Positions 10,446 through 28,978 are shown, numbered from the stretch's first letter. The stretch: 41,333 nucleotides of DNA from Candidatus Staskawiczbacteria bacterium RIFOXYB1_FULL_37_44 (GCA_001822065.1 MHPJ01000010.1:1-41333), one strand, 5' to 3'. The notes: generated from the sequence alone by a model not told the origin. Numbers and translations are program-made.

Positions 10446-10456
10446 ATCTGGCTGTT

Positions 10457-10549
10457 GTCATTGCGAGGAGGCTCGCAAGCCGACGTGGCAATCTATAACT
10501 CTGGATTGCCACGCTCGTCGCCCAAAGGGCGAACTTCGCTTGCAATGAC
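10457..10549. repeat. REPIN/RPE-like bipartite palindrome, family B (GTCATTGCGAG...GCAATC / GATTGC...GCAATGAC)
   Basis: Terminal inverted repeats; full copies at 15401 and 28878, half copies at 7278 and 23529. Confidence 0.85.
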
Positions 10550-10554
10550 AATGC

Positions 10555-10599
10555 AAAAAAAACGCGCCCCTCATTTCGCTTTCGCGAAATTCGGGGCAC
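10555..10599 (-). terminator. Intrinsic terminator of the 10645-12195 gene
   Basis: GTGCCCC-GA-ATTTCGC-GAAA-GCGAAAT-GA-GGGGCGC followed by U8. Confidence 0.8.
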
Positions 10600-10644
10600 T
10601 TATTGTTTTACTCGCGAGAACTTTGTCCTCGCCTACTTGAACTT

Positions 10645-12195
10645 TCAGCCCATCCCGCCGCCATCGCCGGAGTAAATGCTCCAGCGGGTCTGATCAGCGT
10701 ACTGCTCGAAGATCTTGTCGGTCGCCAGAGCCGAGCCGTCGGGACGCTTGGCGCTGATGCCAGCATCTCCCGAAAGCTGCGCTCGCAAATATCCATACTG
10801 GATATCGTCGCGCGCATCGGCGCGAATCTCAAAGCTGTAAGTATTTCCTACGGGGCTGGTGAGCAAAAGGCCGTCAAAGACAACCTGCTCGTTCACCAAC
10901 TCGCCCGCCACCGAGCCGTCGAAAATGCCGTCGCTGTTGGTGTCCCAGTGCATCACATAATTAGTGAAACTGGACAGATCACCTTGGGTAGCCGTGATAG
11001 CCACATGGGTGATGTACATCAAGCTGGTACTGGAAGCCGTGAAGGCCTCCAAAACCAAATCCGGCGTTCCCGGCTCCACAGTCTGCCAGTTTGGCGAAGC
11101 GGTCGGGATCTCTTTGACCACCAGCTCGTGATCAGCGGACTTAAACGAGAACAGAGTGGCGACGTTGGTGTAAAGCCGAATTTGCGCTCCTGTGGCTGGC
11201 GCCGTGCCATTGACCATAGTGCCCTGCAAGGGCTTACCGGTTTCCGTGTTCACTGCGTTCAGCCCCGACGTATCGAAGGCCAATTGCAGATGGTCAGAAA
11301 CTGGCACGGCAACGATGTCGCCACGCACCTCGTATCGGCCGTCAGGCATGTCTGCATCGGCAAGATTAAAACTGAGCTTGCCGTTGGACACGGTTCCGGC
11401 GCTACAAACACTCACGTCGAAAACATCGTCCCAGTTGGTATCTGCCCACAAAGAGTAAGCCGCATCATCGAGATCACCCTGTTGAGCCGTAAAGCTCATG
11501 GTCTTGGGCTGAACCAATTCGGACTGCCAAGAATAAAACTTCAGCAGGCTGACGCCTTGCTGGTCAATTTCCACAGACCCGTACTTGTCGCCAGATTCTT
11601 GGCTGACGCTCCAGGACTGCGTGTCCATGGGTTGTAAAATGGGATCCACGCCGCCGTACCTGACGTTTTCAAACGGCAGATCCACACCCCGCAAATTGAC
11701 GCCCGAGACCAACGCGATGTCCAACCCAATGTCCTCGCCGGACAAATAAGAGTTAAACTTCGCATAAACCTCGATATGGAGCCCCTTTTTGGACAGCCAC
11801 ACCGGCCTGTAGACGTCTGTGCTAATGACGTCGTAATAGTCCGGCCTCGCGGATGCGAGATTGGCCTCACAGCCATCCTTGGACTTGCCGTTCAAATCGG
11901 CCATCACCACCACTTCGGTGATGTTGTACCGCAGTTCGGCGCTTCCAAAAGCTGGCAAGAAGTCAAACCCCGTGAGCCGAGCGCGATTGCGACCGGTCTT
12001 CAGAGTCATGTCCAACAGCTCCACTTTGGAAGCGCCGGGCAGAACGCCCGAAGCCAACAATGGGATCTTGTTGTTGATCACATCGATGAACGGCATGGGC
12101 GCAGGTCTTAATGTCCCGCTCCCGCCGCCGGCCAGCATTTGCCGAGGCTCCAACGACTCAACGCGCAACTTCCGGCTCGTCAAATTCCTACGCAT
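10645..12195 (-). CDS. GC-rich putative surface/S-layer-like protein with Planctomycete-type LEPRxLL N-terminal motif and three beta-rich repeats
   Basis: SD AAGGAG before ATG 12195; MRRNLTSRKLRVESLEPRQMLAG; repeats containing MADLNG, LWADTNWD and HWDTNSD. Confidence 0.75.
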   Translation of the reverse strand: MRRNLTSRKLRVESLEPRQMLAGGGSGTLRPAPMPFIDVINNKIPLLASGVLPGASKVELLDMTLKTGRNRARLTGFDFLPAFGSAELRYNITEVVVMADLNGKSKDGCEANLASARPDYYDVISTDVYRPVWLSKKGLHIEVYAKFNSYLSGEDIGLDIALVSGVNLRGVDLPFENVRYGGVDPILQPMDTQSWSVSQESGDKYGSVEIDQQGVSLLKFYSWQSELVQPKTMSFTAQQGDLDDAAYSLWADTNWDDVFDVSVCSAGTVSNGKLSFNLADADMPDGRYEVRGDIVAVPVSDHLQLAFDTSGLNAVNTETGKPLQGTMVNGTAPATGAQIRLYTNVATLFSFKSADHELVVKEIPTASPNWQTVEPGTPDLVLEAFTASSTSLMYITHVAITATQGDLSSFTNYVMHWDTNSDGIFDGSVAGELVNEQVVFDGLLLTSPVGNTYSFEIRADARDDIQYGYLRAQLSGDAGISAKRPDGSALATDKIFEQYADQTRWSIYSGDGGGMG

Positions 12196-12258
12196 CACAG
12201 CTCTCCTTAAATCAATGAACACTTTAACAAAAAAGAGGAACCATTCCTCTCTTTATTT

Positions 12259-12287
12259 ATCTTAGCATATTATTAAAACCTTGTCAA
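12259..12287 (-). promoter_or_regulatory. sigma70 promoter
   Basis: TTGACA-17nt-(TGc)TAAGAT followed by AAATAAAG and a leader hairpin. Confidence 0.8.
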
Positions 12288-12380
12288 CTCATTCGGCCTA
12301 CATAAAAAATCGCCTAAAAAGGTGATAAAAGTTTTAACTACAATTAGGGGTATACAAAATTTACGACTATTTTTAGTATG

Positions 12381-12451
12381 AGCGGGTGATGGGAATCGGA
12401 CCCACGTACTTTGATTGGCAACCAAATGCACTACCATTGTGCTACACCCGC
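12381..12451 (-). tRNA. tRNA-Gly(GCC)
   Basis: Cloverleaf GCGGGTG...CACCCGC-U; anticodon arm TTTGG-TTGCCAA-TCAAA. Confidence 0.93.
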
Positions 12452-12459
12452 AGTTCATG

Positions 12460-12531
12460 TGCCGGGGAAAGGAATCGGACCTTCGACCACTGCTTTTTCA
12501 GAGCAGTGCTCTACCACTGAGCTACCCCGGC
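12460..12531 (-). tRNA. tRNA-Phe(GAA)
   Basis: GCCGGGG...CCCCGGC-A; anticodon arm CTGCT-CTGAAAA-AGCAG. Confidence 0.95.
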
Positions 12532-13196
12532 ATATTAATTATGTTTTTATATATACCCTCTGTCCATCCTTTAATCTTCAAAAACAATTTAGTATTGCAT
12601 ACATAAATATCAAAAGTTCCGAAGGGTAAAGAATTTTTTTTGTTTTGGCTACTTATATTATGCTTTGAATATGTTTTATAAAATTGGCTTAACGGAATTT
12701 TAGAAACTGAGGACCAATAATTTTCAGCTTTTTTTATGTTAAGATGTGGGTGAATATGGATATGCCCTCTAAACTTTTTTTCTGGAACATAGCAGATTTT
12801 TCTCAAAAATTCCATCATAATTTCAATTATTTTGGGGTCGCCGTTTGCTATTCTAACTAATCCACGTTGTGTCTTGCCTCCCTCCGCCCAATATAAAGCA
12901 ATTCCTAAAATTTTTAAATCTTGTAAAGATAAATTATTTATCTCTTCTCTTGCTTTATCAATTATTATCTGTCTCCGATTATTTTCATTCTTAAATCTAG
13001 TCGCCCTTCTTTTTTCTATTATTTCCTTTTTAACGCCCTTGTTAGATAATTCTTGTTTTTGATCTTTTGTAAGCTCTATATTTTTTACCCATAAACTGAT
13101 ACTACTTTTGGAAACTCCCAATTCTTTTTTAATTTCGTTCATTGACCAGCCTTGTTTTCTTAAACTGATAGCCAAATTTTTTTCTTTTAGTTTCAT
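12522..13196 (-). CDS. HTH + LAGLIDADG-like protein inside a tRNA cluster
   Basis: N-terminal HTH (GWSMNEIKKELGVSKSSISLW), LGIALYWAEGGK helix and NGDPKIIE; stop codon inside tRNA-Phe. Confidence 0.7.
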   Translation of the reverse strand: MKLKEKNLAISLRKQGWSMNEIKKELGVSKSSISLWVKNIELTKDQKQELSNKGVKKEIIEKRRATRFKNENNRRQIIIDKAREEINNLSLQDLKILGIALYWAEGGKTQRGLVRIANGDPKIIEIMMEFLRKICYVPEKKFRGHIHIHPHLNIKKAENYWSSVSKIPLSQFYKTYSKHNISSQNKKNSLPFGTFDIYVCNTKLFLKIKGWTEGIYKNIINMPG

Positions 13197-13257
13197 AATT
13201 AAACCCGTTAGTTGTTTGTTATATCTATTATAGCATAACGGTCTAATTATGGAAATG

Positions 13258-13329
13258 TGAACGGCATAGGATTCGAACCTATAACCTCCGCGATGTAAAC
13301 GCGATGCTCTGCCGTTGAGCTAGCCGTCC
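13258..13329 (-). tRNA. tRNA-Val(TAC)
   Basis: GGACGGC...GCCGTTC-A; anticodon loop TTTACAT; GGTTCGAATCC T-arm. Confidence 0.95.
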
Positions 13330-13337
13330 TTGTCTTG

Positions 13338-13356
13338 CACTGAGCTTGTCGAAGTG
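13338..13356. repeat. Short REP-like element (CACTGAGCTTGTCGAAGTG)
   Basis: Relatives at 7921-7939 (inverted) and 37921-37940. Confidence 0.7.
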
Positions 13357-13437
13357 TGCGCGAGAGAGGAGTCGAACCTCCACGCCTTTCGGCACCAGCT
13401 CCTTAGGCTGGCGTGTATGCCATTTCACCACTCGCGC
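13357..13437 (-). tRNA. tRNA-Leu(AAG)
   Basis: GCGCGAG...CTCGCGC-A, long variable arm, anticodon arm CCAGC-CTAAGGA-GCTGG. Confidence 0.9.
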
Positions 13438-13440
13438 AAT

Positions 13441-13905
13441 TTATTTTTTCTCCCGCCCCTCTGAGGCGGCTGGCGCGCCTGCTGTTGATTCCTCAACTGG
13501 CTCCCGCCCTTCTGGGACGAGGCTCGCCTCTTCAGAGGCGGCGGGCGCAATTGCAACTGCAAAATCTCTTTTCTTTAATTTTGCTTTTTTCCCTTTGGCT
13601 GTTCTTAAATAATAAAGTTTTGATCTTCTGGCCTTTGCGCTTCTTATAATTTCAAATTTTTCCACAGACGGCGAATGGATTGGGAAAACCCTTTCAACTC
13701 CTACGCTGTCAACAACTTTACGCACAGTTATTGTGGCTGAAATTCCTTTGCCGTGCTTTTTGGCAATAATTATGCCTTCAAAAATCTGAATTCTTTCTTT
13801 GTCGCCTTCTTTTATTTTTTGGTGTACTTTAATTGTATCTCCCGGCCTTAAGTCTGGTATTTTTCTTTCTTGCTCTTTATTAAATTTTTCAAGTAATGTT
13901 GTCAT
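13441..13905 (-). CDS. rplS: 50S ribosomal protein L19 with repeat-derived C-terminal tail
   Basis: [29 protein letters not shown] and RRSKLYYLR. Confidence 0.97.
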
Positions 13906-13963
13906 CTAAATGAATTTTAAATTTTAAGTTTTAAATTTTAAATATTTTGGTTTGAATTAAAAT

Positions 13964-14716
13964 TTATAATTTATTATTTAAAATTTTAAGTGCTTGTTTT
14001 AATTCTTCCGGCAGTTCTGACAAAAATTCTTTTGTCTCTCCGCCTAATAATTGGATTTTTAAGTATTTTGCGTGCAGGAATTGTCTTGTCAGGCCTTCTG
14101 GTATTTTTGAATTTTTAAAGCCATACATTTTATCTCCTGCAATTGGATGTTTTAAATAAGCTAAATGGCACCGTATTTGGTGCCTGCGGCCTGTTTTTAT
14201 TTTGACTTCAAGTAATGTAAATTCACTTGAGGTCATCCCGCGAAGCCTTGGCGAAGTGGGACTTTTATATCTGTCGATGACTCTATATTCGGTAATTGCT
14301 TCCCTGGCAGATTTGGCCTGCCTGCCGGCAGGCAGGGAGCGTAACGCCACTTGTTTTCTAAAATCTTTTTTAGATCGGGCAATTAAAGTTTTAATTTCTC
14401 CAGAGTCATTTTCCATAACTCCCTCTGCCAAACAAACATATTTCTTTTCTACCTCTCTACTTATAAACTGTTTTTGCAGAAAAATCAAGCTTTCATTTGT
14501 TTTTGCCACCAGTAAAACTCCCGAAGTGTCTTTGTCTAACCTGTGAACAATTCCATATCTCGGGGGAGACCCGATGTCCCCCAAATTCGGCTTTTGCTCT
14601 ATTAAGGCGTCGATTAGCGTATTTTCTGTTGTTTTTCCTTCGGGAAACACAACCATTCCCGCTGGCTTGTCCACCGCCAGCACATCATTATCTTCGTAAA
14701 TTATTTTTATTTCCAT
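13964..14716 (-). CDS. RluA/RluD family pseudouridine synthase (no S4 domain)
   Basis: VDKPAGMVV, HRLDKDTSG, TGRRHQIRCH, HPIAGD and RQFLHA. Confidence 0.93.
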   Translation of the reverse strand: MEIKIIYEDNDVLAVDKPAGMVVFPEGKTTENTLIDALIEQKPNLGDIGSPPRYGIVHRLDKDTSGVLLVAKTNESLIFLQKQFISREVEKKYVCLAEGVMENDSGEIKTLIARSKKDFRKQVALRSLPAGRQAKSAREAITEYRVIDRYKSPTSPRLRGMTSSEFTLLEVKIKTGRRHQIRCHLAYLKHPIAGDKMYGFKNSKIPEGLTRQFLHAKYLKIQLLGGETKEFLSELPEELKQALKILNNKL

Positions 14717-14721
14717 TTGTT

Positions 14722-14934
14722 TTAGGCTTCTTCCCACTCGTTAATTGAAATACCGGCTTGTTTTAAAATTTCAGAAACAAGATGCCTTGAAATATCTCCG
14801 CGATGAGGATTTGGAATATGAACTTTTAATTCTCCCTTCACCATAAATAAATGACGACCACCCGAAAAGGGGCCATCAAATCCAAGCCTTTGGAATTTTT
14901 GCACAAATTTACGCCAGGAAATATTTTTAGGCAT
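14722..14934 (-). CDS. hicA: HicA family toxin
   Basis: 70 aa; LGF...GGRHLFM..VHIPNPH...EILKQAGI; overlaps the upstream antitoxin. Confidence 0.85.
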   Translation of the reverse strand: MPKNISWRKFVQKFQRLGFDGPFSGGRHLFMVKGELKVHIPNPHRGDISRHLVSEILKQAGISINEWEEA

Positions 14935-15160
14935 GGCGGTTGCCAATTTTCATTAAAAAGCCGGGTATTTTTTCTTTTGCCTGAATTTTTAAAATAAACC
15001 AATCTTCTAAAACTTCTTTCAACTCTTGTCTGCAGTCTTCCAAGTTTTTTGCATTAGACCAAACCCCGCGAAGTCCTGCTATTTCACCAAAATAACTTCC
15101 ATTCTCCAAAATTTTATATCGCGCTGTTTTTAATTTTTTCTTTATAAATTCTCCAAACAT
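14927..15160 (-). CDS. hicB: HicB family antitoxin (short, no C-terminal DNA-binding domain)
   Basis: YFGEIAGLRGVWSNAKNLEDCRQELKEVLEDW...IP. Confidence 0.85.
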   Translation of the reverse strand: MFGEFIKKKLKTARYKILENGSYFGEIAGLRGVWSNAKNLEDCRQELKEVLEDWFILKIQAKEKIPGFLMKIGNRHA

Positions 15161-15221
15161 ATTTTTAGTATTTATGACTTTAAATTATCACATTTTTATC
15201 ATAAAAACAACATTAAGCTTG

Positions 15222-15295
15222 TGGGCGGTATAGGACTCGAACCTATAACATCGAAAACGTCAATTTCGCGCTCTACCAAATTGAGCTAACCGCCC
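15222..15295 (-). tRNA. tRNA-Val(GAC)
   Basis: GGGCGGT...ACCGCCC-A; anticodon arm CGAAA-TTGACGT-TTTCG. Confidence 0.93.
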
Positions 15296-15321
15296 TCATT
15301 ATTTTAAAATTTTTAATTTTG

Positions 15322-15393
15322 TGGTCCTGGCAGGGATCGAACCTGCGACGGCCGTCTTATAAGGGCGGTGCTCTGCCACTGAGCTACAGGACC
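15322..15393 (-). tRNA. tRNA-Ile(TAT)
   Basis: GGTCCTG...CAGGACC-A; anticodon arm CCGCC-CTTATAA-GACGG (one C-A mismatch). Confidence 0.88.
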
Positions 15394-15400
15394 GAGTCTA

Positions 15401-15490
15401 GTCATTGCGAGGAACGAAGTGACGAAGCAATCCAGAGTGAAATTCACATACTATAGATTGCCGCGTCGCCTGCGGGCTCCTCGCAATGAC
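15401..15490. repeat. Family B bipartite palindrome
   Basis: GTCATTGCGAGGA...AAGCAATCCAGAG...ATAGATTGC...CTCCTCGCAATGAC. Confidence 0.85.
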
Positions 15491-15500
15491 GATTTGCAAA

Positions 15501-17327
15501 TTATTTTGACTTAATTAGTTTTTCAAATTCTTCGCGCTCTATAATTTCTTTTTCTATCAAATCTTTGGCAACTTTGTCCAGCAATGCGCGGCGCTTTAAC
15601 AAAATTTGTTCTGCATTTTTTTGGGCTCCCTTTATTATTACATCAACTTCTTCGTCAATTCTTTCGGCAATTTTTTCAGAATAATTTCTTTGTTCGGAAA
15701 TTTCTTTTCCCAAAAACACCAGTTCTTCTTTTTCGCCAAAAGCAATCAAGCCCAATGAAGACATACCAAATTCTTTTACCATCCTTCTTGCCAAGTCCGA
15801 AGCTCTTTGTAAGTCATTTGAAGCGCCGGTTGTCATTTCGCCAAATTTTATTTTTTCAGCCGAGCATCCGCCAAGCAAAGTGGCAATTTCAGAAATAAAT
15901 CCGGTTTTTGTTTTCATTTTTCTTTCTTCGCTTGGCACTTGCAAAGTGTAGCCGGCGGCCATTCCTCTGGCAATTATGGAAATTTTTCTAACAGGTTCTG
16001 TTTCAGGCGAAAATGTGGAAACTAAAGCATGTCCTGCTTCATGGAAGGCTGCAATTTCTTTTTCTTTTTTAGATAAAATGTGCGACTTTCTTTCTGGGCC
16101 CAGCAAAACTTTTTCAATTGCTTCCAAAAAATCTTTTTGGTGAATTTCTGTTTTATTTTGTCTGGCAGCCAGTAAAGCTCCTTCATTTGCCACATTTGCC
16201 AAATCTGCTCCGGAAAAACCCGGAGTTCTTTCGGCAACTTCTTTAAAATTGACGCCTTTTGCCAAAGGTTTTGTTTTTGAATGGATTTCTAAAATTTCTT
16301 CTCGGTCGTGGACATCCGGCGGATCTAAAACAATTTTTCTGTCAAATCTTCCCGGCCTTAATAAAGCCGGGTCTAAAATGTCCGGCCTGTTTGTGGCAGC
16401 TAAAATAATCACGCCGGTTTCTTTTTCAAAGCCGTCCATTTCAACCAAAATTTGGTTTAAAGTTTGTTCTCTTTCATCGTGTCCGCCTCCAATGCCGGCT
16501 CCTCTGTGGCGTCCAATAGCGTCAAGTTCGTCAATAAAAACAATTGACGGCGAAGATTTTTTTGCCATTGAAAATAAATCGCGAACGCGAGCTGAACCCA
16601 CTCCTACAAACATTTCCACAAATTCAGATCCTGAAATTGATAAAAACGGCACATTGGCTTCACCTGCCACTGCTCTTGCCAACAAAGTTTTTCCAACTCC
16701 GGCTCCTCCAACCAGCAAAACGCCGCGTGGAATTTTTGCTCCCATTGCCAAATATTTTTTTGGAAATTTTAAAAAGTCTACAATTTCAACCAATTCTTCT
16801 TTGGCCTCTTTCAGGCCGGCTACGTCTTTGAAAGTAATTTTTTCTTTGCCATGTCCCTCGGCTCCAAAAATTCTGGCTTTGGCTTTTGTAAAATCAAATG
16901 CCTGCATTGCTCCTGTTTTTGCCTGTCGGAACATAAACCAAAATATCAATCCAAAAAATACCAAAGGCAAAATCCCAAAAACCAGAAGCGGAGTTGCCCA
17001 AGACCAAAAATCCTGTTTGACAGGCTGTACGTCCACTTGCACTTTTTGCAAAGCATCTTTATTTACTCCCAAATTTGCCAGCAAATCAGTTACGCTGGTG
17101 TTTTCTTCTTTCATTGAGGTTACGGTTTTATTGTCATTATATGTAATTTCAAGAGTTGTTCCTGCAACAGTAACCTTTTTTACTTTGTTCGCGTTTATGT
17201 CGCTAACCAATTGCGTGGCAGAAATTTCATTTGGAGTTACCGCCGGAAAATAAAGCGCGCTGAAAATTCCTGTAATTACAATTAGGATTAAAACTACTAA
17301 TATAAAATTTTTTATAAGTGGATTCAT
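15501..17327 (-). CDS. ftsH: ATP-dependent zinc metalloprotease FtsH
   Basis: Two TMs, Walker A GVGKTLLA, FIDELDA, ALLRPGRFDR and HEAGH. Confidence 0.98.
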   Translation of the reverse strand: MNPLIKNFILVVLILIVITGIFSALYFPAVTPNEISATQLVSDINANKVKKVTVAGTTLEITYNDNKTVTSMKEENTSVTDLLANLGVNKDALQKVQVDVQPVKQDFWSWATPLLVFGILPLVFFGLIFWFMFRQAKTGAMQAFDFTKAKARIFGAEGHGKEKITFKDVAGLKEAKEELVEIVDFLKFPKKYLAMGAKIPRGVLLVGGAGVGKTLLARAVAGEANVPFLSISGSEFVEMFVGVGSARVRDLFSMAKKSSPSIVFIDELDAIGRHRGAGIGGGHDEREQTLNQILVEMDGFEKETGVIILAATNRPDILDPALLRPGRFDRKIVLDPPDVHDREEILEIHSKTKPLAKGVNFKEVAERTPGFSGADLANVANEGALLAARQNKTEIHQKDFLEAIEKVLLGPERKSHILSKKEKEIAAFHEAGHALVSTFSPETEPVRKISIIARGMAAGYTLQVPSEERKMKTKTGFISEIATLLGGCSAEKIKFGEMTTGASNDLQRASDLARRMVKEFGMSSLGLIAFGEKEELVFLGKEISEQRNYSEKIAERIDEEVDVIIKGAQKNAEQILLKRRALLDKVAKDLIEKEIIEREEFEKLIKSK

Positions 17328-17379
17328 GTGTATATATTTAATATGCTAAATTTAACATAAAATTAAAAATTATTCAATG

Positions 17380-17414
17380 AAAAAGCCGAAGGGTTGTTTT
17401 GCAACACCTCCGGC
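17380..17414 (-). terminator. Intrinsic terminator of the 17437-18735 gene
   Basis: GCCGGAGG-T-GTTG-CAAAA-CAAC-CCTTCGGC followed by U5. Confidence 0.75.
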
Positions 17415-17436
17415 AGACTATGACTTTGCGGCAATA

Positions 17437-18735
17437 TCAGCCTCGAGTCTTATTTTTTTCTTGCTTTGCGCGAACCATGCGGAAAACTGTCCGCAAGAAA
17501 TTCTTGCATTGGACAGGTTTCATATCAAGGAAGGCTTCACCGGGATTGTGGAACTGCCCGACTGCTTTGTCGTACAACTTAGCAGCCTTCGGGCTTTTTG
17601 AAACAACTTCCACAAGACCGATATGACCGTCTGACCTGCGCGCGAAGCGCAAAGTTAGATTCTTGATGGTGACTCCCTCATCAGGATTATTTGGTGGAGC
17701 CCATTTAAACTCCTCCTCGCAAATTAAGGTGGCCATGCCGACAGCGCCTTTCAAAAACTCCCACGGCTCAAGCTCTCGGTTTTCCTTCTCGAAAATCGCC
17801 GAGAATCCGCGTTTGAGCGCGGCGCCGAGTTGTTCGGTCTTCCTTTGCCAGTTTTCCAGTTTTTCACCGGACAACTGTGGCGGCGGGATAATCCTAAGTC
17901 CGTCGCAGACTTTTCCGTCGTCAGCCTTAATCGCCGACAACAGAATTGTTGCGTTTCCGAGCTCGGCAAGTCCGTTTTTGTGGCCGGTAATTCCGGTCAC
18001 AATCAGAACTTGCTTGTCGATTCCGTTTAGTTGGCTTTCCAGTTCGAAAGTCGCCTTGTTGTCGATTCCAAGTTGGAACTTTCCGAGTTTTCCAGCCCAA
18101 GCTTCCTGTGGAATGATTTCTTCGTCGGAAGTCCGGGGTTTGGGCGGGGCAGTCACGGTAGCGAGTTTTTCTGCAGACCGTGTTTCCACGGCGTGCAATT
18201 GCTCGCCGCGCAACCTGCCCACAAGCTGCAGAATCTCGGTTTTGTCTTCGGGTTTGAGCCCAAAACCTTCTGCCGTAACTTGAAAGGTTGGCGACAGGTA
18301 TTTCTCCTGTGCCGCCCAGACAAGTATGTCCACTGCTTCTTGCTCATTTATTTCTCGTTTCATTTTGAAACGAATGTTTGCAAGGTGCGCGGCACGCCGG
18401 AGGGCAAACGCCGAATTCTCCATGAGCTTGGCGATGCCGAGCTTGAACCGCGAAATAACGTCGGCCCAGGTAAGCTCCGGAATATCCGAGGGGTTGTCGA
18501 GTCCTGCTTCGATTTTCTCGGTCTCGGCCAGAAACTCGAACACCAGCGGCAGAACGACTGCCAGCAGGTACTCGGCGTGCTCAGCAATTTTGCCGGCGGC
18601 CGCCTGCACAGCCTTGATGGCCTCCATCGCCGAGCGTTTCTTTTCGCTCGGCTCCATACGCGAGGGGTCTTTCTCAATGGCCTCGAGTAGTTCGGTGATG
18701 GACAGTTCAACCTGGGTGTCAATGGTTTTTTCCAT
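17437..18735 (-). CDS. GC-rich hypothetical cytoplasmic protein (432 aa)
   Basis: Long ORF with GC-ending codons, SD GAAGGA, own promoter and terminator; no recognised domain. Confidence 0.75.
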   Translation of the reverse strand: MEKTIDTQVELSITELLEAIEKDPSRMEPSEKKRSAMEAIKAVQAAAGKIAEHAEYLLAVVLPLVFEFLAETEKIEAGLDNPSDIPELTWADVISRFKLGIAKLMENSAFALRRAAHLANIRFKMKREINEQEAVDILVWAAQEKYLSPTFQVTAEGFGLKPEDKTEILQLVGRLRGEQLHAVETRSAEKLATVTAPPKPRTSDEEIIPQEAWAGKLGKFQLGIDNKATFELESQLNGIDKQVLIVTGITGHKNGLAELGNATILLSAIKADDGKVCDGLRIIPPPQLSGEKLENWQRKTEQLGAALKRGFSAIFEKENRELEPWEFLKGAVGMATLICEEEFKWAPPNNPDEGVTIKNLTLRFARRSDGHIGLVEVVSKSPKAAKLYDKAVGQFHNPGEAFLDMKPVQCKNFLRTVFRMVRAKQEKNKTRG

Positions 18736-18813
18736 GACGAGAATCCTTCAAAAACAGGGTTTAGTGTGCCGGCCGAAAAAATATCGGGCAGCTCTTAAGT
18801 GCCTACTTTATTT

Positions 18814-18842
18814 ATTATAGCATTTTAGGAAGTCGTTGTCAA
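18814..18842 (-). promoter_or_regulatory. Perfect-consensus sigma70 promoter
   Basis: TTGACA-17nt-(TGc)TATAAT followed by AAATAAAG. Confidence 0.88.
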
Positions 18843-18854
18843 GACCTTGACCTC

Positions 18855-18882
18855 TTGACAATTAGATTGTATTTGCTATACT
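18855..18882 (+). promoter_or_regulatory. sigma70 promoter of csrA (divergent from the previous promoter)
   Basis: TTGACA-16nt-(TGc)TATACT. Confidence 0.8.
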
Positions 18883-18961
18883 TAAATCAGCTCATTAGAT
18901 GCCCTGGCTTGGAGGCTTGGGGAGCGATCCGGTTTTTCATCCTGAACAGGAGGGATTTGCA

Positions 18962-19141
18962 ATGTTGGTACTTTCCCGAAAGAAGAACGAGAGTATTGTC
19001 ATCAATGATGACATCACAATCGTTGTCGTTGAAATCCGGGGCGACAAAGTGCGCCTTGGTATTGAAGCGCCCAAAGAAGTTCCGGTGCATCGGCGAGAGG
19101 TTTTCGACGCCATCCGTCGCAACGATGCGACGGTCAAGTAG
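18962..19141 (+). CDS. csrA: Carbon storage regulator CsrA
   Basis: MLVLSRKKNESIVI...KVRLGIEAPKEVPVHRREV; SD CAGGAGG upstream. Confidence 0.96.
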   Translation: MLVLSRKKNESIVINDDITIVVVEIRGDKVRLGIEAPKEVPVHRREVFDAIRRNDATVK

Positions 19142-19171
19142 GCTATGCAAATGCCCGGCAGATAGTATTTT

Positions 19172-19203
19172 AGCAGGAAGCTTCGGCGACCTGCTCTTTT
19201 TTT
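19172..19203 (+). terminator. Intrinsic terminator of csrA
   Basis: AGCAGG-AA-GC-TTCG-GC-GA-CCTGCT followed by C and U7. Confidence 0.8.
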
Positions 19204-19232
19204 GTTTAAAATTATAAGATAATATAAAAAAT

Positions 19233-19961
19233 ATGATTATAGATACGCATTCGCATTTAAGCTTTAAAGCATACAATACAGATAGAGATGAGGTTATAAA
19301 ACGCAATTTAGAAAATGGCGTTGTTTGTATTGATGTTGGAACTGATTATAATTCAAGTAAAAAAGCTGTTGAATTGGCAAAAAAATATGAAAATATTTAT
19401 GCGTCTGTTGGCATGCACCCCGAAGTTGTTGATGAAGAATTCGACAAAGAAAAATATATAGAATTAGCGAAGTCAAAAAAGATTGTTGCTATTGGGGAGA
19501 TCGGGCTGGATTATAAGTTTAAAAACGAAGGTCAAAAAAAACTTTTTATTGAGCAATTAGAATTAGCAAAAGAATTAAATTTGCCGGTTATTATTCACTG
19601 CCGCGCTGCTCACAATGATGTGCTGGAAATTCTTAAAAACTACAAACTATCCGGAGTTATTCACTGTTTTACAGGCAATTGGCAAGAAGCTCAAAAATAT
19701 TTGGAGTTGGGTTTTTATTTGGGAATTAACGGAATAATCGATAAATTAAATTTGGACGAAGTTATAAAAAATTGTTCGTTAGATAAAATTTTGGTTGAGA
19801 CAGATTGTCCGTATTTGACTCCGAAAGAAGAAGGAACTAAACGAAATGAGCCAATTTTTGTAAAACATGTTATTCAAAAAATTGCAGGCTTACGAGAAAT
19901 TACTTTTGACGAAGTTGCCTCTGCAACTTTTCAAAACGCAAAAAACCTATTTAGAATATAA
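19233..19961 (+). CDS. tatD: TatD family hydrolase/DNase
   Basis: IDTHSHL, GMHP, AIGEIGLDY, IIHCR, HCFTG, ETDCPYL and RNEP. Confidence 0.95.
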   Translation: MIIDTHSHLSFKAYNTDRDEVIKRNLENGVVCIDVGTDYNSSKKAVELAKKYENIYASVGMHPEVVDEEFDKEKYIELAKSKKIVAIGEIGLDYKFKNEGQKKLFIEQLELAKELNLPVIIHCRAAHNDVLEILKNYKLSGVIHCFTGNWQEAQKYLELGFYLGINGIIDKLNLDEVIKNCSLDKILVETDCPYLTPKEEGTKRNEPIFVKHVIQKIAGLREITFDEVASATFQNAKNLFRI

Positions 19962-19967
19962 AACATC

Positions 19968-19996
19968 TTGACAGTCAGGTGTGTTTTTGGTAACTT
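19968..19996 (+). promoter_or_regulatory. sigma70 promoter upstream of a structured noncoding region
   Basis: TTGACA-17nt-(TGg)TAACTT. Confidence 0.7.
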
Positions 19997-20002
19997 TAAT
20001 TT

Positions 20003-20355
20003 GATGATGCTCCTTTGATCGTGAGGAGAGGGGCCGCTGATAGTTTCCCGCTTAGGATATGGTGTCTCAGACGTGAAACTATTATGTCCCTCTCCTCGTT
20101 TTGAGGAATTTGTTCTTTGATAGCGTCCTATGCGAGAAGAAGGGTTGAAGACTTTCCGTTTTTAGCCCACGGGAATGATAGGAAGGCTCGTCGCTTTCCT
20201 TCGGTTGCCTCCGTCGCAGCCTTTCTTCTCGCTTTGTCTTATCAAACCCATCTGGGTTTGGTTATAGCCTTCGGGCAAACCCCAAAGAGAGATATTATAG
20301 TACCGCGCGGTCATTCTTGCGTATTATTTCCCCATCTCTCTGCGGGGCTTTTTTT
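20003..20355 (+). ncRNA. Candidate multi-hairpin ncRNA of about 350 nt, unknown family
   Basis: Long G-U-containing stems 20023-20034/20086-20097, 20132-20147/20217-20232 and 20286-20293/20334-20341; UUCG tetraloop at 20267-20276; U7 end. Confidence 0.65.
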
Positions 20356-20508
20356 ATAAACTTTTTGCAAAAAAATACCAAAATAAGTCTACGCCATATT
20401 ATTGCTATAGCATTGGTGCGGAGTATAGTATACTTTGTATTTAAAGTAGTTATTTGTCAAGATTTACGAAGTTAAAGATATTTGGTAAAATAAAAAATTA
20501 AAGAAAGA

Positions 20509-22989: not shown

Positions 22990-22995
22990 AATTAA

Positions 22996-24738
22996 ATGGC
23001 AAAAAAAGTTTTGTTGGGAAACGAAGCAATTGTAAGGGGAGCCTTGGAAGCCGGAGTTAGTTTTGTTACAGGTTACCCGGGATGTCCCTCGGCCGAAATT
23101 GGCGAAGAATTTTTGCGCATTGCAAAAAAGGAAGGAATTTATGCAGAATGGGCAACAAATGAAAAAGTTGCTTTAGAATCTGCCATTGGCGCCAGTTTTT
23201 CTGGATTAAAAAGTTTGATAAATATGAAAAGTTTTGGAATAAATGTTTGTTCTGACAGCTTGTTGCCTTTGGCTTATACCGGCGTTAAAGCTCCAATGGT
23301 AATCGTTGTTGCAGACGATCCGAGCTGCCATAGCTCGGCGCAATCTGAACAAGATTCAAGAGGTTATGCTTTTTTGTCGCACATTCCTGTTTTAGAGCCC
23401 GCCGATGTGCAAGAATGCTATGAGTTTACAAAACTAGGGTTTGAAATTTCTGAAAAATTTAATATTCCGGTAATTTTACGCACCACAACGCGTGTTAATC
23501 ATCAGAGAGCAATAGTTGAATTTAATGAGATTGCTTCGTCGCAAGCTCCTCGCAATGACGGGAATTTTGTGAAAAATCCGCACCAGTTTTGCACAATGCC
23601 TCCGCGGGTTTTGGAAATGAAAAAAGAGCTTTTGGAAAAAATGGAAAAAATAAAACAGTTTGCAGAAAAATCGAAAATTAACAAAATTGAAAATTCATTA
23701 AAAATAGGTAATTCTAAATTGGGAATTATCACATCTGGCGTGTCTTATTTGTATGTAAAAGAAGCGCTTGGCGAACTTGGCTTGAATTTGCCAATTTTAA
23801 AATTGGGATTTTTTTATCCTTTGCCAGATAAAACTGTTTTAAAATTTATTAAAGGCCAGAAAAAAGTTTTAGTTGTGGAGGAATTAAACGGCTATATAGA
23901 AAACGGAATAAAAATAATTGCCAAAGACGCGAATTTAAAAACCGAAATACTCGGCAAAAATGTTTTGCCTGAAATTGGTGAATTAAATACAGAAAAAATT
24001 ATTTTAGCTTTGTTAAAAGTCCTGAAATTGAAAATTGGAAAATTGGAAAACTCATTGAAAATAGAATCGCTTTGCTGTAATTCTGCGGAATTAAGTGAAA
24101 ATTTAAAATTGGAAATTCCCCGCAGATTTCCAAAACTTTGCGAGGGATGCCCGCATTTGTACACATTGGCCGCAATTAAAAGAGCGGCTCCGGAAAATAC
24201 AGTTTTTGGCGGAGACATCGGATGCTATATGATTGCCGGATATCCTCCGCACAATATGCAAGATTATGTTTTTTCAATGGGCTCGTCTATGGGAATAAGC
24301 CACGGCATTGTGAAAGCAACCAGCCCCGCCTTCGCCAAGGCTTCGGCGGGCAAGCAAAAGGTGATTTCTTTAATTGGCGACGCGACATTTTTTCATGCTG
24401 GAATTCAAGGATTGATAAATATGGTTTATAACAAATCTAATTCGCTGGTTGTTATTTTAGACAACAGGATTACCGCAATGACCGGCCACCAGCCAAACCC
24501 GGGAATGGGAAAAAACGGAATGGGAGAAACGGTTGAAGAGCTGAAAATTGAAGATATTGTAAGAGCTTGCGGAGTAAAACATATTAAAGTTTTAGATCCG
24601 ATAAATGTAAAAGAGCTGGAAGAGACAGTAAAAGATTTTCTAACAAAAGACGAAGTTTCGGTTATAATTTCAAAGCGCATTTGCGCATTGCTGGAAAGAC
24701 GGCAGCCAAAAAGTGAATCTCTACAAGTAGTTGAATAA
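22996..24738 (+). CDS. iorA: Indolepyruvate:ferredoxin oxidoreductase alpha subunit (no C-terminal ferredoxin domain)
   Basis: LLGNEAIVRGALEAG, GYPGCPS, NEKVALE, CEGCPH, GDIGCY, IGDATFFH and LDNRITAMTGHQP. Confidence 0.93.
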   Translation: MAKKVLLGNEAIVRGALEAGVSFVTGYPGCPSAEIGEEFLRIAKKEGIYAEWATNEKVALESAIGASFSGLKSLINMKSFGINVCSDSLLPLAYTGVKAPMVIVVADDPSCHSSAQSEQDSRGYAFLSHIPVLEPADVQECYEFTKLGFEISEKFNIPVILRTTTRVNHQRAIVEFNEIASSQAPRNDGNFVKNPHQFCTMPPRVLEMKKELLEKMEKIKQFAEKSKINKIENSLKIGNSKLGIITSGVSYLYVKEALGELGLNLPILKLGFFYPLPDKTVLKFIKGQKKVLVVEELNGYIENGIKIIAKDANLKTEILGKNVLPEIGELNTEKIILALLKVLKLKIGKLENSLKIESLCCNSAELSENLKLEIPRRFPKLCEGCPHLYTLAAIKRAAPENTVFGGDIGCYMIAGYPPHNMQDYVFSMGSSMGISHGIVKATSPAFAKASAGKQKVISLIGDATFFHAGIQGLINMVYNKSNSLVVILDNRITAMTGHQPNPGMGKNGMGETVEELKIEDIVRACGVKHIKVLDPINVKELEETVKDFLTKDEVSVIISKRICALLERRQPKSESLQVVE

Positions 24739-24743
24739 AAATT

Positions 24744-25313
24744 ATGAAAAATTTTAATATTATTATTGCGGGAGTTGGCGGACAAGGTTTGATTACTTTG
24801 GTAAAAATTATTACAGAAGCTGCTTTTATTGAAGGTTGCGATGTTAAAAGTTCCGAGCTCCACGGGCTTTCGCAAAGAGGCGGAAGCGTTATTGTGCATA
24901 TAAGATTCGGTAAAAAAATATATTCTCCATTGGTAAAAACTGGCGGAGCGGATTTGATAATCGGGCTTGAAGAGCTGGAAGGTTTGAGGGCGCATGTTTT
25001 TGCCGGTCCGCAGACAAAATTTTTAGTTAATAAATATTTCTCTCCGTTTATTGGAACATTGCCGGAAGAAAAAATTATGGAAAATTTGAATAAGATAGCA
25101 AAAAATAATTTGTATTTAGTTGAAGCTTCAAAAATTTGCAAAGAAAAACTGCAAAACGAAGTGGTTAGCAGTTTGTATCTTTTGGGCTTTTGCGTTAACG
25201 AAAAATTAATACCGCTTAGCGGGGGCTCAATCTTTGAGGCGATTAAAAAAACAATGCCGGAAAAATTTGTAGATTTGAATATTAAAGCTTTTGAATTATC
25301 TAAAAATATATGA
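24744..25313 (+). CDS. iorB: Indolepyruvate oxidoreductase beta subunit
   Basis: AGVGGQG, SELHGLSQRGGSVIVHIRFG and DLNIKAF. Confidence 0.93.
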   Translation: MKNFNIIIAGVGGQGLITLVKIITEAAFIEGCDVKSSELHGLSQRGGSVIVHIRFGKKIYSPLVKTGGADLIIGLEELEGLRAHVFAGPQTKFLVNKYFSPFIGTLPEEKIMENLNKIAKNNLYLVEASKICKEKLQNEVVSSLYLLGFCVNEKLIPLSGGSIFEAIKKTMPEKFVDLNIKAFELSKNI

Positions 25314-26077
25314 AAGTTGTAATTGCCGCTGCCGGACAAGGAACAAGAATGCTGGATTTGTCAATGAATAAATCCAAACATTTAATAGAGGTTGAAAAAC
25401 GGCCGTTTTTGGCGTATGTTTTGGACAATTTAGTTGCCGCCGGATATAACGACATAATTTTGGTAGTGGGTTTTAAAGAAGAACTGATGGAAGAATTTAG
25501 GAAAGAATTCTTAAAATACGTTAAATCATCCGGTGAATTAAAAATTAGAATTATTAACCAGCACAAGATTTTAGGTCCAAAAGAAAAAGAATACGGCACT
25601 GCCTGCCCAGTAAAATGCGTTAAAAACGAGATTGGAAAAGAAAATTTTATTTATTTGTATGGCGATAATTTGTTTTCTGTAAACGATTTGAGATCATTGA
25701 ATATAGAAGACAACTTTTGCTATATTGCCGGATTAAAACATCAAAATTCGGAGAAATACGGAGTTTTAATCCGGGACGGAGAAGATTTTTTGGATAAAAT
25801 TATTGAAAAACCCAAGGAATTTGTTGGAAATTTAATTAATGCCGGGCTTTATAAATTTACTCCGGAAGTTTTTGAAAAAATAAATATAATCCAAAAATCT
25901 CCAAGGGGAGAATATGAAATAACAGACGCGATTTCTCTTTTAGCAAAAGACAGAAAAGTAAAAATTAGGGAAATAAATGATTATTGGCTGGATTTTGGAA
26001 ATCCCGAAGATATAAAAAAAGTTTCAGATTTTATAAAAAATGGACGCAATAAAACAATCGCAGAAAGCCTTAAATAG
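25310..26077 (+). CDS. Sugar-phosphate nucleotidyltransferase (NTP_transferase)
   Basis: AAAGQGTRM, YGDNLF, IIEKP, INAGLY, SPRGEYEITDAI and WLDFG. Confidence 0.9.
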   Translation: MKVVIAAAGQGTRMLDLSMNKSKHLIEVEKRPFLAYVLDNLVAAGYNDIILVVGFKEELMEEFRKEFLKYVKSSGELKIRIINQHKILGPKEKEYGTACPVKCVKNEIGKENFIYLYGDNLFSVNDLRSLNIEDNFCYIAGLKHQNSEKYGVLIRDGEDFLDKIIEKPKEFVGNLINAGLYKFTPEVFEKINIIQKSPRGEYEITDAISLLAKDRKVKIREINDYWLDFGNPEDIKKVSDFIKNGRNKTIAESLK

Positions 26078-26627
26078 AGCTGTTGAGGTTTTAAAAAACG
26101 GCGGAGTTGTAATTTTCCCCACAGATACGGTTTACGGATTTTTGGCACTTGCGGATAATGGAAAGGCAATAGAAAAAATATATAAAATTAAAAAAAGGCC
26201 AAGGTCAAAACCTTTGGCTGTTTTTGTAAAAGACATAAAAATGGCTAAAACATTAGCAGAAATTAGTGAAAAGCAAGAAAAAATCTTAAAAAAGCGCTGG
26301 CCCGGCAAATTCACCTTTATACTTGAGTGTCATTCCCGCGAAAGCGGGAATCCAGTCATCAAAGACGGAAAAATAGCCCTACGAATTCCGAAACGTAAAT
26401 TTTTAAATGATTTGTTAAAAAAAATAAATAAGCCGTTGGCGCAAACTTCGGTAAATATTTCCGGCCAGCCCGCTTTGACAAAAATCAGCGACATTATAAA
26501 TTTATTTAAAAACCGATCGACATCGGAAGTCGAACAATTTTTAATAATAGACGCGGGAAACTTGCCAAAATCAAAACCTTCAGCCATTATTGACTTGACT
26601 TCGGAAGCATTGAAAAGATTAAGATAA
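26040..26627 (+). CDS. tsaC: L-threonylcarbamoyladenylate synthase (Sua5/TsaC)
   Basis: FPTDTVYG, KKRPRSKPL, WPGKFT, ALRIP, TSVNISG and PSAIID. Confidence 0.93.
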   Translation: MDAIKQSQKALNRAVEVLKNGGVVIFPTDTVYGFLALADNGKAIEKIYKIKKRPRSKPLAVFVKDIKMAKTLAEISEKQEKILKKRWPGKFTFILECHSRESGNPVIKDGKIALRIPKRKFLNDLLKKINKPLAQTSVNISGQPALTKISDIINLFKNRSTSEVEQFLIIDAGNLPKSKPSAIIDLTSEALKRLR

Positions 26628-26680
26628 TGTTTTAATATAAAATATGTTCTCTTGTTTTCCTAATTTTGAGGAGGTTTGTT

Positions 26681-26878
26681 ATGCGAGGCAAAAGAGATGA
26701 AAAATTGAAAAAAGCGTTGGAAGCTATTGCTTCTGGATTGGGATATAACGGCAAGCCAATAAATTTGGCGCTTATTGCTGCCGAAGCCTATACAAGCACT
26801 CAGAAATTTGCAAGAGAAATCAGGCTATGCGAGGCTATAACGCGTCGAAAACTTTACGGCGCACGCTATAAAGGGTGA
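26681..26878 (+). CDS. Small basic hypothetical protein (65 aa) in its own transcription unit
   Basis: SD GAGGAGG, promoter TTGAAA-17-TAATAT (26610-26638) and terminator 26900-26923. Confidence 0.6.
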   Translation: MRGKRDEKLKKALEAIASGLGYNGKPINLALIAAEAYTSTQKFAREIRLCEAITRRKLYGARYKG

Positions 26879-26899
26879 AAAATATCACATCGCTGGCAT

Positions 26900-26923
26900 G
26901 GCCGAGCAAGTCTCGGCCTTTTT
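26900..26923 (+). terminator. Intrinsic terminator
   Basis: GGCCGAG-CAAGT-CTCGGCC-TTTTT. Confidence 0.8.
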
Positions 26924-26970
26924 ATTGAATAAAAAATGGGATTTGGTATACTAAAGGATAACTTTAAAAT

Positions 26971-28870: not shown

Positions 28871-28877
28871 TTACGGT

Positions 28878-28969
28878 GTCATTGCGAGCCTTGCAACAGC
28901 AAGGCGTGGCAATCCAGAGTTTTATGCATATACTATAGATTGCTTCGTCGTTTCACTCCTCGCAATGAC
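28878..28969. repeat. Family B bipartite palindrome
   Basis: GTCATTGCGAG...GGCAATCCAGAG...ACTATAGATTGCTTCGTCG...CTCCTCGCAATGAC. Confidence 0.85.
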
Positions 28970-28978
28970 AGAAATATT

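Follow-up and report, generated by a model that had tools for sequence, protein, structure and literature searches.

GC-rich single-gene cassettes with Shine-Dalgarno-like motifs, partly of apparent Planctomycete ancestry, in a Candidatus Staskawiczbacteria genome without an anti-Shine-Dalgarno sequence

Why should a bacterium whose ribosome is apparently unable to pair with a Shine-Dalgarno (SD) sequence keep SD-like motifs in front of a small set of GC-rich genes? The question is raised by a 41,333-nt stretch of DNA from Candidatus Staskawiczbacteria bacterium RIFOXYB1_FULL_37_44 (MHPJ01000010.1), referred to below as the window, which represents the entire contig C10 of the genome designated here G000. 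The window carries four single-gene units, cassettes 1-4, encoding a 516-aa protein, a 432-aa protein, the regulator CsrA and a 65-aa open reading frame (ORF), respectively. We propose, with a probability of roughly one half, that the GC-rich units belong to an old, maintained and horizontally acquired gene pool, part of it of Planctomycete origin, in which the motif acts as a CsrA site or as a structural element. An initial annotation, made from the sequence alone, had described these units as host-acquired genes that keep host-style signals in a genome of the Candidate Phyla Radiation (CPR); its observation is confirmed by our analysis, and its interpretation is partly supported.

The units and their signals are located as follows (GC3, GC content of third codon positions):

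10645-12195 (-): cassette 1, coding sequence, 516 aa, GC 0.56, GC3 0.70
12196-12287 (-): cassette 1, promoter and 5' leader; -35 box TTGACA 12287-12282, -10 box TAAGAT ending at 12259
12250-12234 and 12208-12203 (-): cassette 1, leader elements; hairpin and AAGGAG, the latter 7 nt before ATG
10555-10644 (-): cassette 1, 3' untranslated region; conserved hairpin at about 10611-10633, terminator stem at about 10565-10597, T-run 10555-10562
17437-18735 (-): cassette 2, coding sequence, 432 aa, GC 0.53, GC3 0.59
18736-18842 (-): cassette 2, promoter and leader; TTGACA-17-TATAAT 18842-18814 (12/12, with TG), leader of about 70 nt, GAAGGA 18749-18744
17372-17436 (-): cassette 2, terminator-like hairpin, then T-run; recognized by eye and missing from the listed rows of the terminator scan
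18962-19141 (+): csrA, 59 aa, GC 0.51, GC3 0.60
18855-18961 (+): csrA, promoter and leader; TTGACA-16-TATACT 18855-18882 (11/12), leader of about 75 nt, AGGAGG 18948-18953
19172-19204 (+): csrA, terminator hairpin and T-run, seen by eye
26668-26926 (+): cassette 4; GAGGAGG 26668-26674, 65-aa ORF 26681-26878, terminator 26900-26918 plus T-run

All four units possess the SD-like motif, promoter and terminator first listed for them, and the first three are GC-richer than their flanks (GC 0.49-0.56 versus 0.30-0.42), as had been stated. The sliding-window check gave 0.55-0.56 across 10501-12000 and 0.49-0.52 across 17501-19000, and about 0.30-0.42 elsewhere in the window. A purine-rich motif 5-10 nt before the start, as expected of an SD-type signal, precedes each of the four ORFs (AAGGAG, GAAGGA, AGGAGG and GAGGAGG). 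The promoter of cassette 1 reads TTGACA-17-TAAGAT with TG and shares the string TGCTAnnATAAATAAAG with that of cassette 2, which bears out the common promoter string reported earlier; over 17.5 kb, the divergent promoters of the 432-aa gene (12/12) and csrA (11/12) score highest. The three GC-rich units are self-contained, each with a strong sigma-70-type promoter, a 50-110-nt leader with an AGGAG-type motif and its own terminator. Cassette 4 is of another kind: its terminator has the top score of the scanned region, it is not GC-rich (GC 0.43, GC3 0.36), its ORF belongs to no family and has no homolog in the congeners G005 or G014, and apart from the SD-like motif we found no foreign signature that would uphold its description as a foreign-type unit.

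Across the whole genome, genes were classed as GC-rich (GC3 of at least 0.45) or native (GC3 below 0.40), with ORFs overlapping the 16S gene or a repeat removed, and a match of a 5-mer or longer at -20 to -4 before the start was counted as SD-like. The 36 GC-rich genes make up 3.4% of the genome and are spread over 19 of its 26 contigs; cassettes 1-3 are members of this pool. We found the motif in 18/36 GC-rich genes versus 26/645 native ones (Fisher odds ratio 23.8, p 4e-14), in line with the predicted difference between cassettes and core genes, which extends to GC3, codon usage and leader length. The native count is no higher than at positional controls (37/645 and 27/645), so that the remark on SD-less housekeeping starts, among which RuvB, FtsH, TatD and LeuS had been correctly named, is borne out. 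With matches of 4 nt or longer the GC-rich count rises to 28/36, whereas control positions within or further upstream of the same genes carry the 5-mer in only 1/36 and 2/36 cases. A Pfam scan of 20 further GC-rich genes left 13 without any family; five exceeded the curated cut-off (a PurC-PurE fusion, a receiver domain, DUF218, a DksA/TraR zinc finger and a sigma-70 region 4) and two gave weak matches below it (AIRS_C and SPFH/Band_7).

The native genes and the ribosome of G000 present a different picture. The genome (836 kb in 26 contigs, 37% GC; estimated bin completeness 100%, contamination 1.23%) has a 16S gene that carries an interrupting insertion, and its ribosomal protein uL1 was not found by a search that was positive in 14/14 control genomes. 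The 3' end of the 16S shows a T-run after GGATCA and no CCTCC within about 60 nt; the CCUCC anti-SD is likewise missing from 6/6 readable 16S tails of the genus and 4/4 from other families of the order. The SD-less, CPR-like character attributed to this genome at the outset is thereby supported. G000 is an SD-less CPR bacterium of the Parcubacteria type, which is already known, since the available passages of Tsurumaki et al. (2022; PMC9297842) describe a uL1-lacking Parcubacteria subgroup without the anti-SD. As for promoters, -10-like boxes of native G000 genes are concentrated 0-20 nt upstream of start codons, while those of GC-rich genes peak 46-90 nt upstream, and a box ending 4-12 nt before the ATG was detected in 78/303 native versus 1/32 GC-rich genes. 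Because the -10-like box lies just upstream of the ATG, leaderless or very short-leader mRNAs are suggested to be widespread among the native genes of this anti-SD-less lineage. The 16S cannot pair with the AGGAG-type motif, and therefore the motif is no classical SD in G000.

Where did the GC-rich genes come from? We propose that they entered by horizontal transfer, with at least three modules derived from Pirellulales-type Planctomycetes: csrA, the leader carried by the 516-aa protein and a module of sigma-70 region 4 encoded elsewhere in the genome. By its sequence relationships, the Planctomycete ancestry of these three is clear. CsrA passes the curated cut-offs (in brackets) of PF02599 with 91.5 bits (27), TIGR00202 with 81.3 (70.1) and NF002469 with 84.4 (73). 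A scan of 185,579 species genomes returned 540 relatives; the best 80 of these matches share 83-96% aa identity with the window protein, and 73 of the 80 bear the label Planctomycetota (for the most part Pirellulales, Thermoguttaceae, Planctomycetaceae and Pirellulaceae), in agreement with the association noted in the initial annotation. Identity with Pirellulales-type CsrA is 86-96%. Five of the best 80 matches are labelled CPR; three lie in genomes of 1.3-1.4 Mb (Peribacteraceae, Peregrinibacteria and "Patescibacteria group"), and the other two come from doubtful bins of 3.0 and 9.1 Mb.

The 516-aa protein begins with a leader of Planctomycete type (RKLRVESLEPRQMLAGGG), continues with a beta-sandwich-like body and ends in a conserved GGGxG C-terminus; it lacks an evident hydrophobic signal peptide. 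Its LEPRxLL leader, recognized earlier, is a genuine match to PF07595 (Planc_extracel), with 29.6 bits against a cut-off of 25.5 (residues 15-33 of the long ORF) and 34.4 bits in the genome search. The leader motif is kept in all eight members of the family (seven other clusters and the window protein). We detected PF07595 above cut-off seven times in a Bythopirellula genome and once in a Thermoguttaceae genome, but in none of three CPR genomes and none of 14 controls. The structural neighbours of the 516-aa protein are CPR surface proteins, and a scan of genome contigs with this family gave 244 pattern matches and no relatives.

The third module is encoded outside the window:

G000 contig C19 17380-17979 (L021/L187): 199-aa GC-rich cassette protein

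Its C-terminal 68 or so residues are 76-78% identical to the RpoD C-terminus of three Planctomycetes (primary sigma factors of 525-549 aa), compared with 38-40% for CPR sigma factors and at most 65 bits against solved sigma factors. Pfam recognizes only Sigma70_r4 (residues 133-186), and the N-terminal 120 aa belong to no family; since region 4 occurs here without region 2, the protein is a region-4 module rather than a sigma factor. It shares lineage-typical residues with Planctomycete RpoD, but the stretch VTRERIRQIEAK reads VTYECIRQIENR, at positions that we take to be those contacting the -35 element in E. coli sigma-70.

The 432-aa protein is cytoplasmic-looking, and profile searches assigned it to no family; its AlphaFold2 model (mean confidence, pLDDT, 69) has no match in the PDB (best E 0.05). 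Its family comprises 32 representative clusters in 1.84 billion proteins. A phage origin of the cassettes was considered and rejected, since the PHROG search assigned 0/9 unknown proteins and hit nothing but the sigma domain of P0015, and viral contigs contained no relatives of the 432-aa family. As to an island or prophage, cassette 1 adjoins tRNA-Gly, the scanned neighbours are housekeeping genes and there is no PHROG match; no dedicated search for att repeats was made.

The composition of these genes might simply betray recent, unameliorated transfers that still carry the GC content, codon bias and SD of their donor. This would explain the foreign composition and the Planctomycete-like codon usage. 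It would also explain the patchy occurrence, as homologs of cassette 1 are present in 2/25 congeners, the 432-aa family in 2/24 (G011 and G014) and the sigma-4 cassette in 1/25 (G018, 50% identity). The cassette 2 copies are moreover non-syntenic, and a cassette 1 homolog of G018 fills a site that is empty, 465 bp long, in G000 (C19). Yet for csrA the idea is contradicted: the gene is found in 12/25 congeners, in both of the family's other genera (2/2) and in 0/19 other families, is syntenic with tatD in at least eight congeners, and all 16 copies, 51-83% identical to the window copy at the nucleotide level, are GC-rich (GC3 0.48-0.74 versus 0.32-0.40 in the flanks). By this distribution csrA is, in all appearance, vertically inherited across the family. 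The initial annotation had set vertical descent across CPR without Planctomycete affinity against its own reading; csrA is inherited within the family and has that affinity nonetheless.

Recent arrival is equally contradicted for cassette 1. A 30-kb metagenome contig of a related species (L179) carries its ortholog (57% aa identity) beside the same flanking genes, with a TTGACA/TAAAAT promoter of its own, a GGAAGGGAG motif and, at the 3' end, both elements known from cassette 1 (hairpin and terminator). The number of synonymous substitutions per site (dS) between the two is 1.24, like that of five flanking genes (1.18-1.75), and GC3 is nevertheless 0.70 and 0.78, against 0.26-0.40 in the flanking genes. 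The ratio of nonsynonymous to synonymous rates is 0.26 for the cassette 1 pair and 0.09-0.15 for the flanking genes. Even in the cassette 2 homologs of G011 and G014, which have diverged to 27-39% aa identity, the GC island is still there, and so are the promoter, the long leader and the AGGA(G) motif. The cassettes are therefore not recent arrivals, and with dS like that of the flanks the GC-richness and the AGGAG motif must have been maintained. Judged from these comparisons, the foreign style is kept over long times and is no remnant of recent transfer, an explanation that we regard as unlikely. What remains of the earlier proposal of host-acquired genes keeping donor signals is a foreign-type pool with a Planctomycete part, in which csrA has been inherited and cassette 1 has diverged together with its flanks.

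What could maintain the motif? CsrA/RsmA proteins are post-transcriptional regulators whose GGA sites overlap the ribosome-binding region, and their self-regulation is known; in a leader under CsrA control, one GGA motif typically covers the start region and at least one other lies in a hairpin loop. The leader architecture of csrA is kept in the 16 family copies although the leaders otherwise diverge, and a GGA-containing motif occurs 9-17 nt before the ATG in 16/16. By analogy, these leaders resemble those of self-regulated csrA genes. The congeners G014 and G005, equally distant from G000 (77-78% nucleotide identity in ftsH), behave differently: csrA-positive G014 has the motif in 9/20 GC-rich versus 24/581 native genes, whereas csrA-negative G005 has 29 GC-rich genes and the motif in only 3/29. 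G000 has at least five GC-rich families in common with G014 and one with G005, and all four congeners with cassette 1 or 2 homologs are csrA-positive. On the strength of these comparisons, the three genomes fit a link between CsrA and the motif, but are no test of it in themselves. We also observed that many GC-rich genes of G005 (e.g., those at 403282-404460, 565437-566615 and 72713-74419 of contig C1) have C/A-rich leaders (CAACCAACC...) and lipoprotein-like signal peptides; by these features the GC-rich genes of G005 may be a different acquired gene pool.

We therefore favour, as stated, a maintained pool under CsrA. The AGGAG motif would most likely be a GGA site for the acquired CsrA, possibly together with the leader hairpin. 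CsrA would control its own mRNA and the leadered accessory genes, the native genes being leaderless or having short AT-rich leaders. Persistence of high GC3 and of the motif past one synonymous substitution per site would reflect either selection or a GC-favouring process confined to these genes. The products (CsrA, a look-alike of sigma region 4, a surface protein that bears a Planctomycete export signal, a DksA/TraR-like protein and a receiver) could plausibly serve an association with Planctomycetes.

Several results weigh against this proposal. The 432-aa family has no member in 301 Planctomycetota or in 400 other CPR genomes, and the body of the 516-aa protein finds only four marginal matches in the 301 Planctomycetota (E 5e-5 or weaker), while large proteins of three csrA-bearing CPR genomes show domain matches to it of 1e-14 to 1e-23. 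Planctomycete ancestry is thus not borne out for either, and of the Planctomycete signatures claimed at first csrA and the PF07595 leader stand. PurC-PurE and the DksA-like protein likewise display no special Planctomycete affinity. In relative synonymous codon usage (RSCU), the 14 genes richest in GC show a correlation of 0.86 with 113 Planctomycete ORFs and of -0.14 with native genes, but Planctomycetes were the sole GC-rich phylum compared, so the match may reflect GC-richness alone. The csrA tree does not reject monophyly of 13 copies (p-AU 0.39), but with 162 nt it is poorly resolved and too short to count transfers, and its starred branches force at least four label changes, so that several transfers are possible. 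Only half of the csrA leaders (8/16) hold a further GGA that is left unpaired, within a hairpin loop at -42 to -65, and in at least 6/16 a CCUC farther upstream pairs with the GGAG near the start. The CsrA-motif link comes from three related genomes, and in G005 GC-rich genes persist without csrA and without SD-like motifs. Finally, genes were called with our own simple ORF caller, whose ORF and start calls are crude, and the contigs that cover cassette 1 (10511-12408/9) end in a repeat copy and in tRNA-Gly, leaving its junctions unbridged, at a depth of 0.7-2 times that of the flanks.

The persistence of GC-rich genes in G005 would suit a neutral, GC-favouring process, such as biased gene conversion through recombination or through exchange of accessory genes among CPR, with AGGAG as a passive by-product of G-rich leaders; that the genes are accessory, patchy and found at synteny breakpoints would suit it as well. 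We regard it as unlikely: the motif keeps a fixed distance from the ATG in all csrA copies despite the divergence of their leaders and is nearly absent from the control positions of the GC-rich genes. In our judgement, which involves no test, the shift of GC3 from 0.33 to 0.6-0.78 is also large for such a process.

A bolder proposal, already raised in the initial annotation, is that of a host-directed gene set, expressed in a Planctomycete host or with products acting inside or on it, hence the host-like codons, motif and export signal. In a tool-kit version, a Parcubacterium living on Pirellulales-type Planctomycetes would carry genes whose motif is readable only by host ribosomes: a host-type CsrA, a decoy of the host sigma-70 region 4 and a surface protein with the host's export signal. 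Such a scheme could make sense of a motif and GC3 that are conserved although the CPR ribosome cannot use an SD, of a CsrA that shares up to 96% identity with its Planctomycete counterpart, of a copy of Planctomycete RpoD region 4 altered in its presumed -35-contact stretch, of a Planctomycete-specific surface leader on a protein without a hydrophobic signal peptide, and of a type II/IV secretion ATPase gene in the window. However, neither a transfer route nor expression is in evidence, the csrA leader looks like a self-regulated cis unit, and two of the three GC-rich cassette proteins (the 516-aa body and the 432-aa protein) are without Planctomycete relatives. SD use in Planctomycete ORFs is moreover weak (29/369 versus 13/369, a crude count with crude start calls), so that the motif as plain "host style", as first described, is doubtful. 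We know of no host-directed mechanism of this kind between bacteria. We consider a host-directed set, and likewise its tool-kit version, very unlikely; if true, the tool kit would be for bacterial hosts what Agrobacterium T-DNA, or a translocated receptor, is elsewhere.

An assembly chimera, or contamination of the bin with Planctomycete fragments, is scarcely credible. It would account for the position of cassettes at synteny breakpoints and for the repeat-bounded contigs and uneven depth of cassette 1. Yet contigs from two independent runs, X10 (16602-19700) and X8 (16641-17632 and 17608-19700), bridge ftsH, cassette 2, csrA and tatD with 0 differences; the stretch is present in runs from other studies, and the genome in runs from 10 studies. 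Of the junctions whose check was asked for at the outset, those of cassette 2 and csrA are thus bridged; for cassette 1, placement is supported by the synteny of L179, from another species and another assembly. Spots without contig cover at the repeat copies and tRNAs are repeats and were not used as evidence. Homologs in G009, G011, G014 and G018 likewise lie inside AT-rich CPR sequence, the islands occur on 19/26 contigs against a contamination estimate of 1.23%, and the promoter regions and leaders are AT-rich like native sequence. Native, very highly expressed genes with GC3 raised by translational selection, for which only the strong consensus promoters would speak, can practically be dismissed: EF-Tu and about 15 ribosomal-protein genes have a GC3 of 0.19-0.36 and no SD-like motif, so high expression does not account for the islands, cassette RSCU correlates at -0.14 with that of native genes, and the genes are missing in most congeners.

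The neighbours of the cassettes in the window are ordinary core genes (type II/IV secretion ATPase, RuvB, L19, pseudouridine synthase, FtsH, TatD and LeuS). Other features include:

8032-9243: type II/IV secretion ATPase gene
10456-10550: copy of a palindromic repeat like a miniature inverted-repeat transposable element or repetitive extragenic palindrome (MITE/REP-like), abutting the cassette 1 terminator
12380-12531 (-): tRNA-Gly(GCC) and tRNA-Phe(GAA), directly upstream of cassette 1
13356-13437 (-): tRNA-Leu, anticodon AAG (ARAGORN call)
15321-15393 (-): tRNA-Ile, anticodon TAT (ARAGORN call)
15400-15491: MITE/REP-like copy
19966-20358 (+): candidate structured non-coding RNA between tatD and leuS
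28877-28970: MITE/REP-like copy

The anticodons of the two ARAGORN calls are unusual for bacteria. The candidate RNA runs from a TTGACA promoter to a terminator (transcript of some 360 nt) and has a minimum free energy of -140 kcal/mol (z -7.05 against shuffles); Rfam gave no match to it, and it lacks homologs in G005, G014 and the rest of G000. We considered it as a CsrA sponge and rejected this, since its GGA motifs are mostly in stems and it lacks both an Rfam match and a homolog. The MITE/REP-like repeat (80-115 nt, GC-rich, GTCATTGCGAGG...CCTCGCAATGAC) has about 74 paired copies in the genome, one of them inside the 16S insertion (C4 65781-65879), and holds GAGGAG strings able to mimic SD matches. 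GC-rich genes show no association with it (median distance 2.4 versus 4.8 kb, p 0.17). Roughly 7 kb separate csrA from the 516-aa gene in the window; in a Peribacteraceae genome of 1.4 Mb (L031, G041 C7), a Planctomycete-type csrA appears to lie on one contig with a large protein whose domains are like those of the 516-aa body, about 5 kb from it, if contig 7 is the same record.

The hosts of nearly all Parcubacteria are unknown, and three independent Planctomycete-derived modules provide a concrete host prediction, to which a second CPR set with the same CsrA type (Peribacteria/Peregrinibacteria) adds. The findings point to a long-standing partnership with Planctomycetes; consortia of Planctomycetes and CPR, including a Peribacter, have been described (PMC9040852). 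The puzzle is twofold: specific genes hold a GC3 of 0.6-0.78 in a background of 0.33 through saturating synonymous change, and an SD-like motif is kept although the cell's own ribosome cannot pair with it. Its solution would reveal one of two things: that CsrA provides a layer of control over the acquired genes of an SD-less cell, or that a new type of selection acts on the "foreign" style of genes in episymbionts. Among the listings, abstracts and passages covered, supplements aside, we came across no work that deals with GC-rich, SD-bearing genes in CPR lacking the anti-SD, with CsrA in CPR or with gene transfer between CPR and Planctomycetes.

How do these cassettes compare with known systems? 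By analogy with Agrobacterium T-DNA and the "moron" genes of phages, they are self-contained units with their own promoter and terminator and with signals or composition unlike those of their carrier; in contrast to them, they have no borders, integrase or phage relatedness. With CsrA/RsmA systems, the csrA leader shares the start-proximal GGA and, in half of the copies, the loop GGA. It differs in that neither a sponge RNA nor a FliW partner was identified here and in that, on a ribosome without the anti-SD, CsrA would not compete with SD pairing. G000 and its order resemble the group of Tsurumaki et al. (PMC9297842) in the missing CCUCC at the 16S 3' end, and G000 also in that uL1 was not found; a minority of SD-bearing genes goes unmentioned in the available passages of that paper, and the dichotomy of native and GC-rich genes comes from the present analysis. 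Horizontal gene transfer into Patescibacteria is already in print (PMC12455944), and the transferred genes and islands described in the accessible part of that work are, like ours, accessory, patchy and atypical in composition, with regulators among them. Planctomycetes have 0 occurrences in its text as available, and the genes described here differ from that set as single-gene units with their own promoter, leader, terminator and SD-like motif, in a genome without an anti-SD, which have kept their GC3 over a dS above 1.

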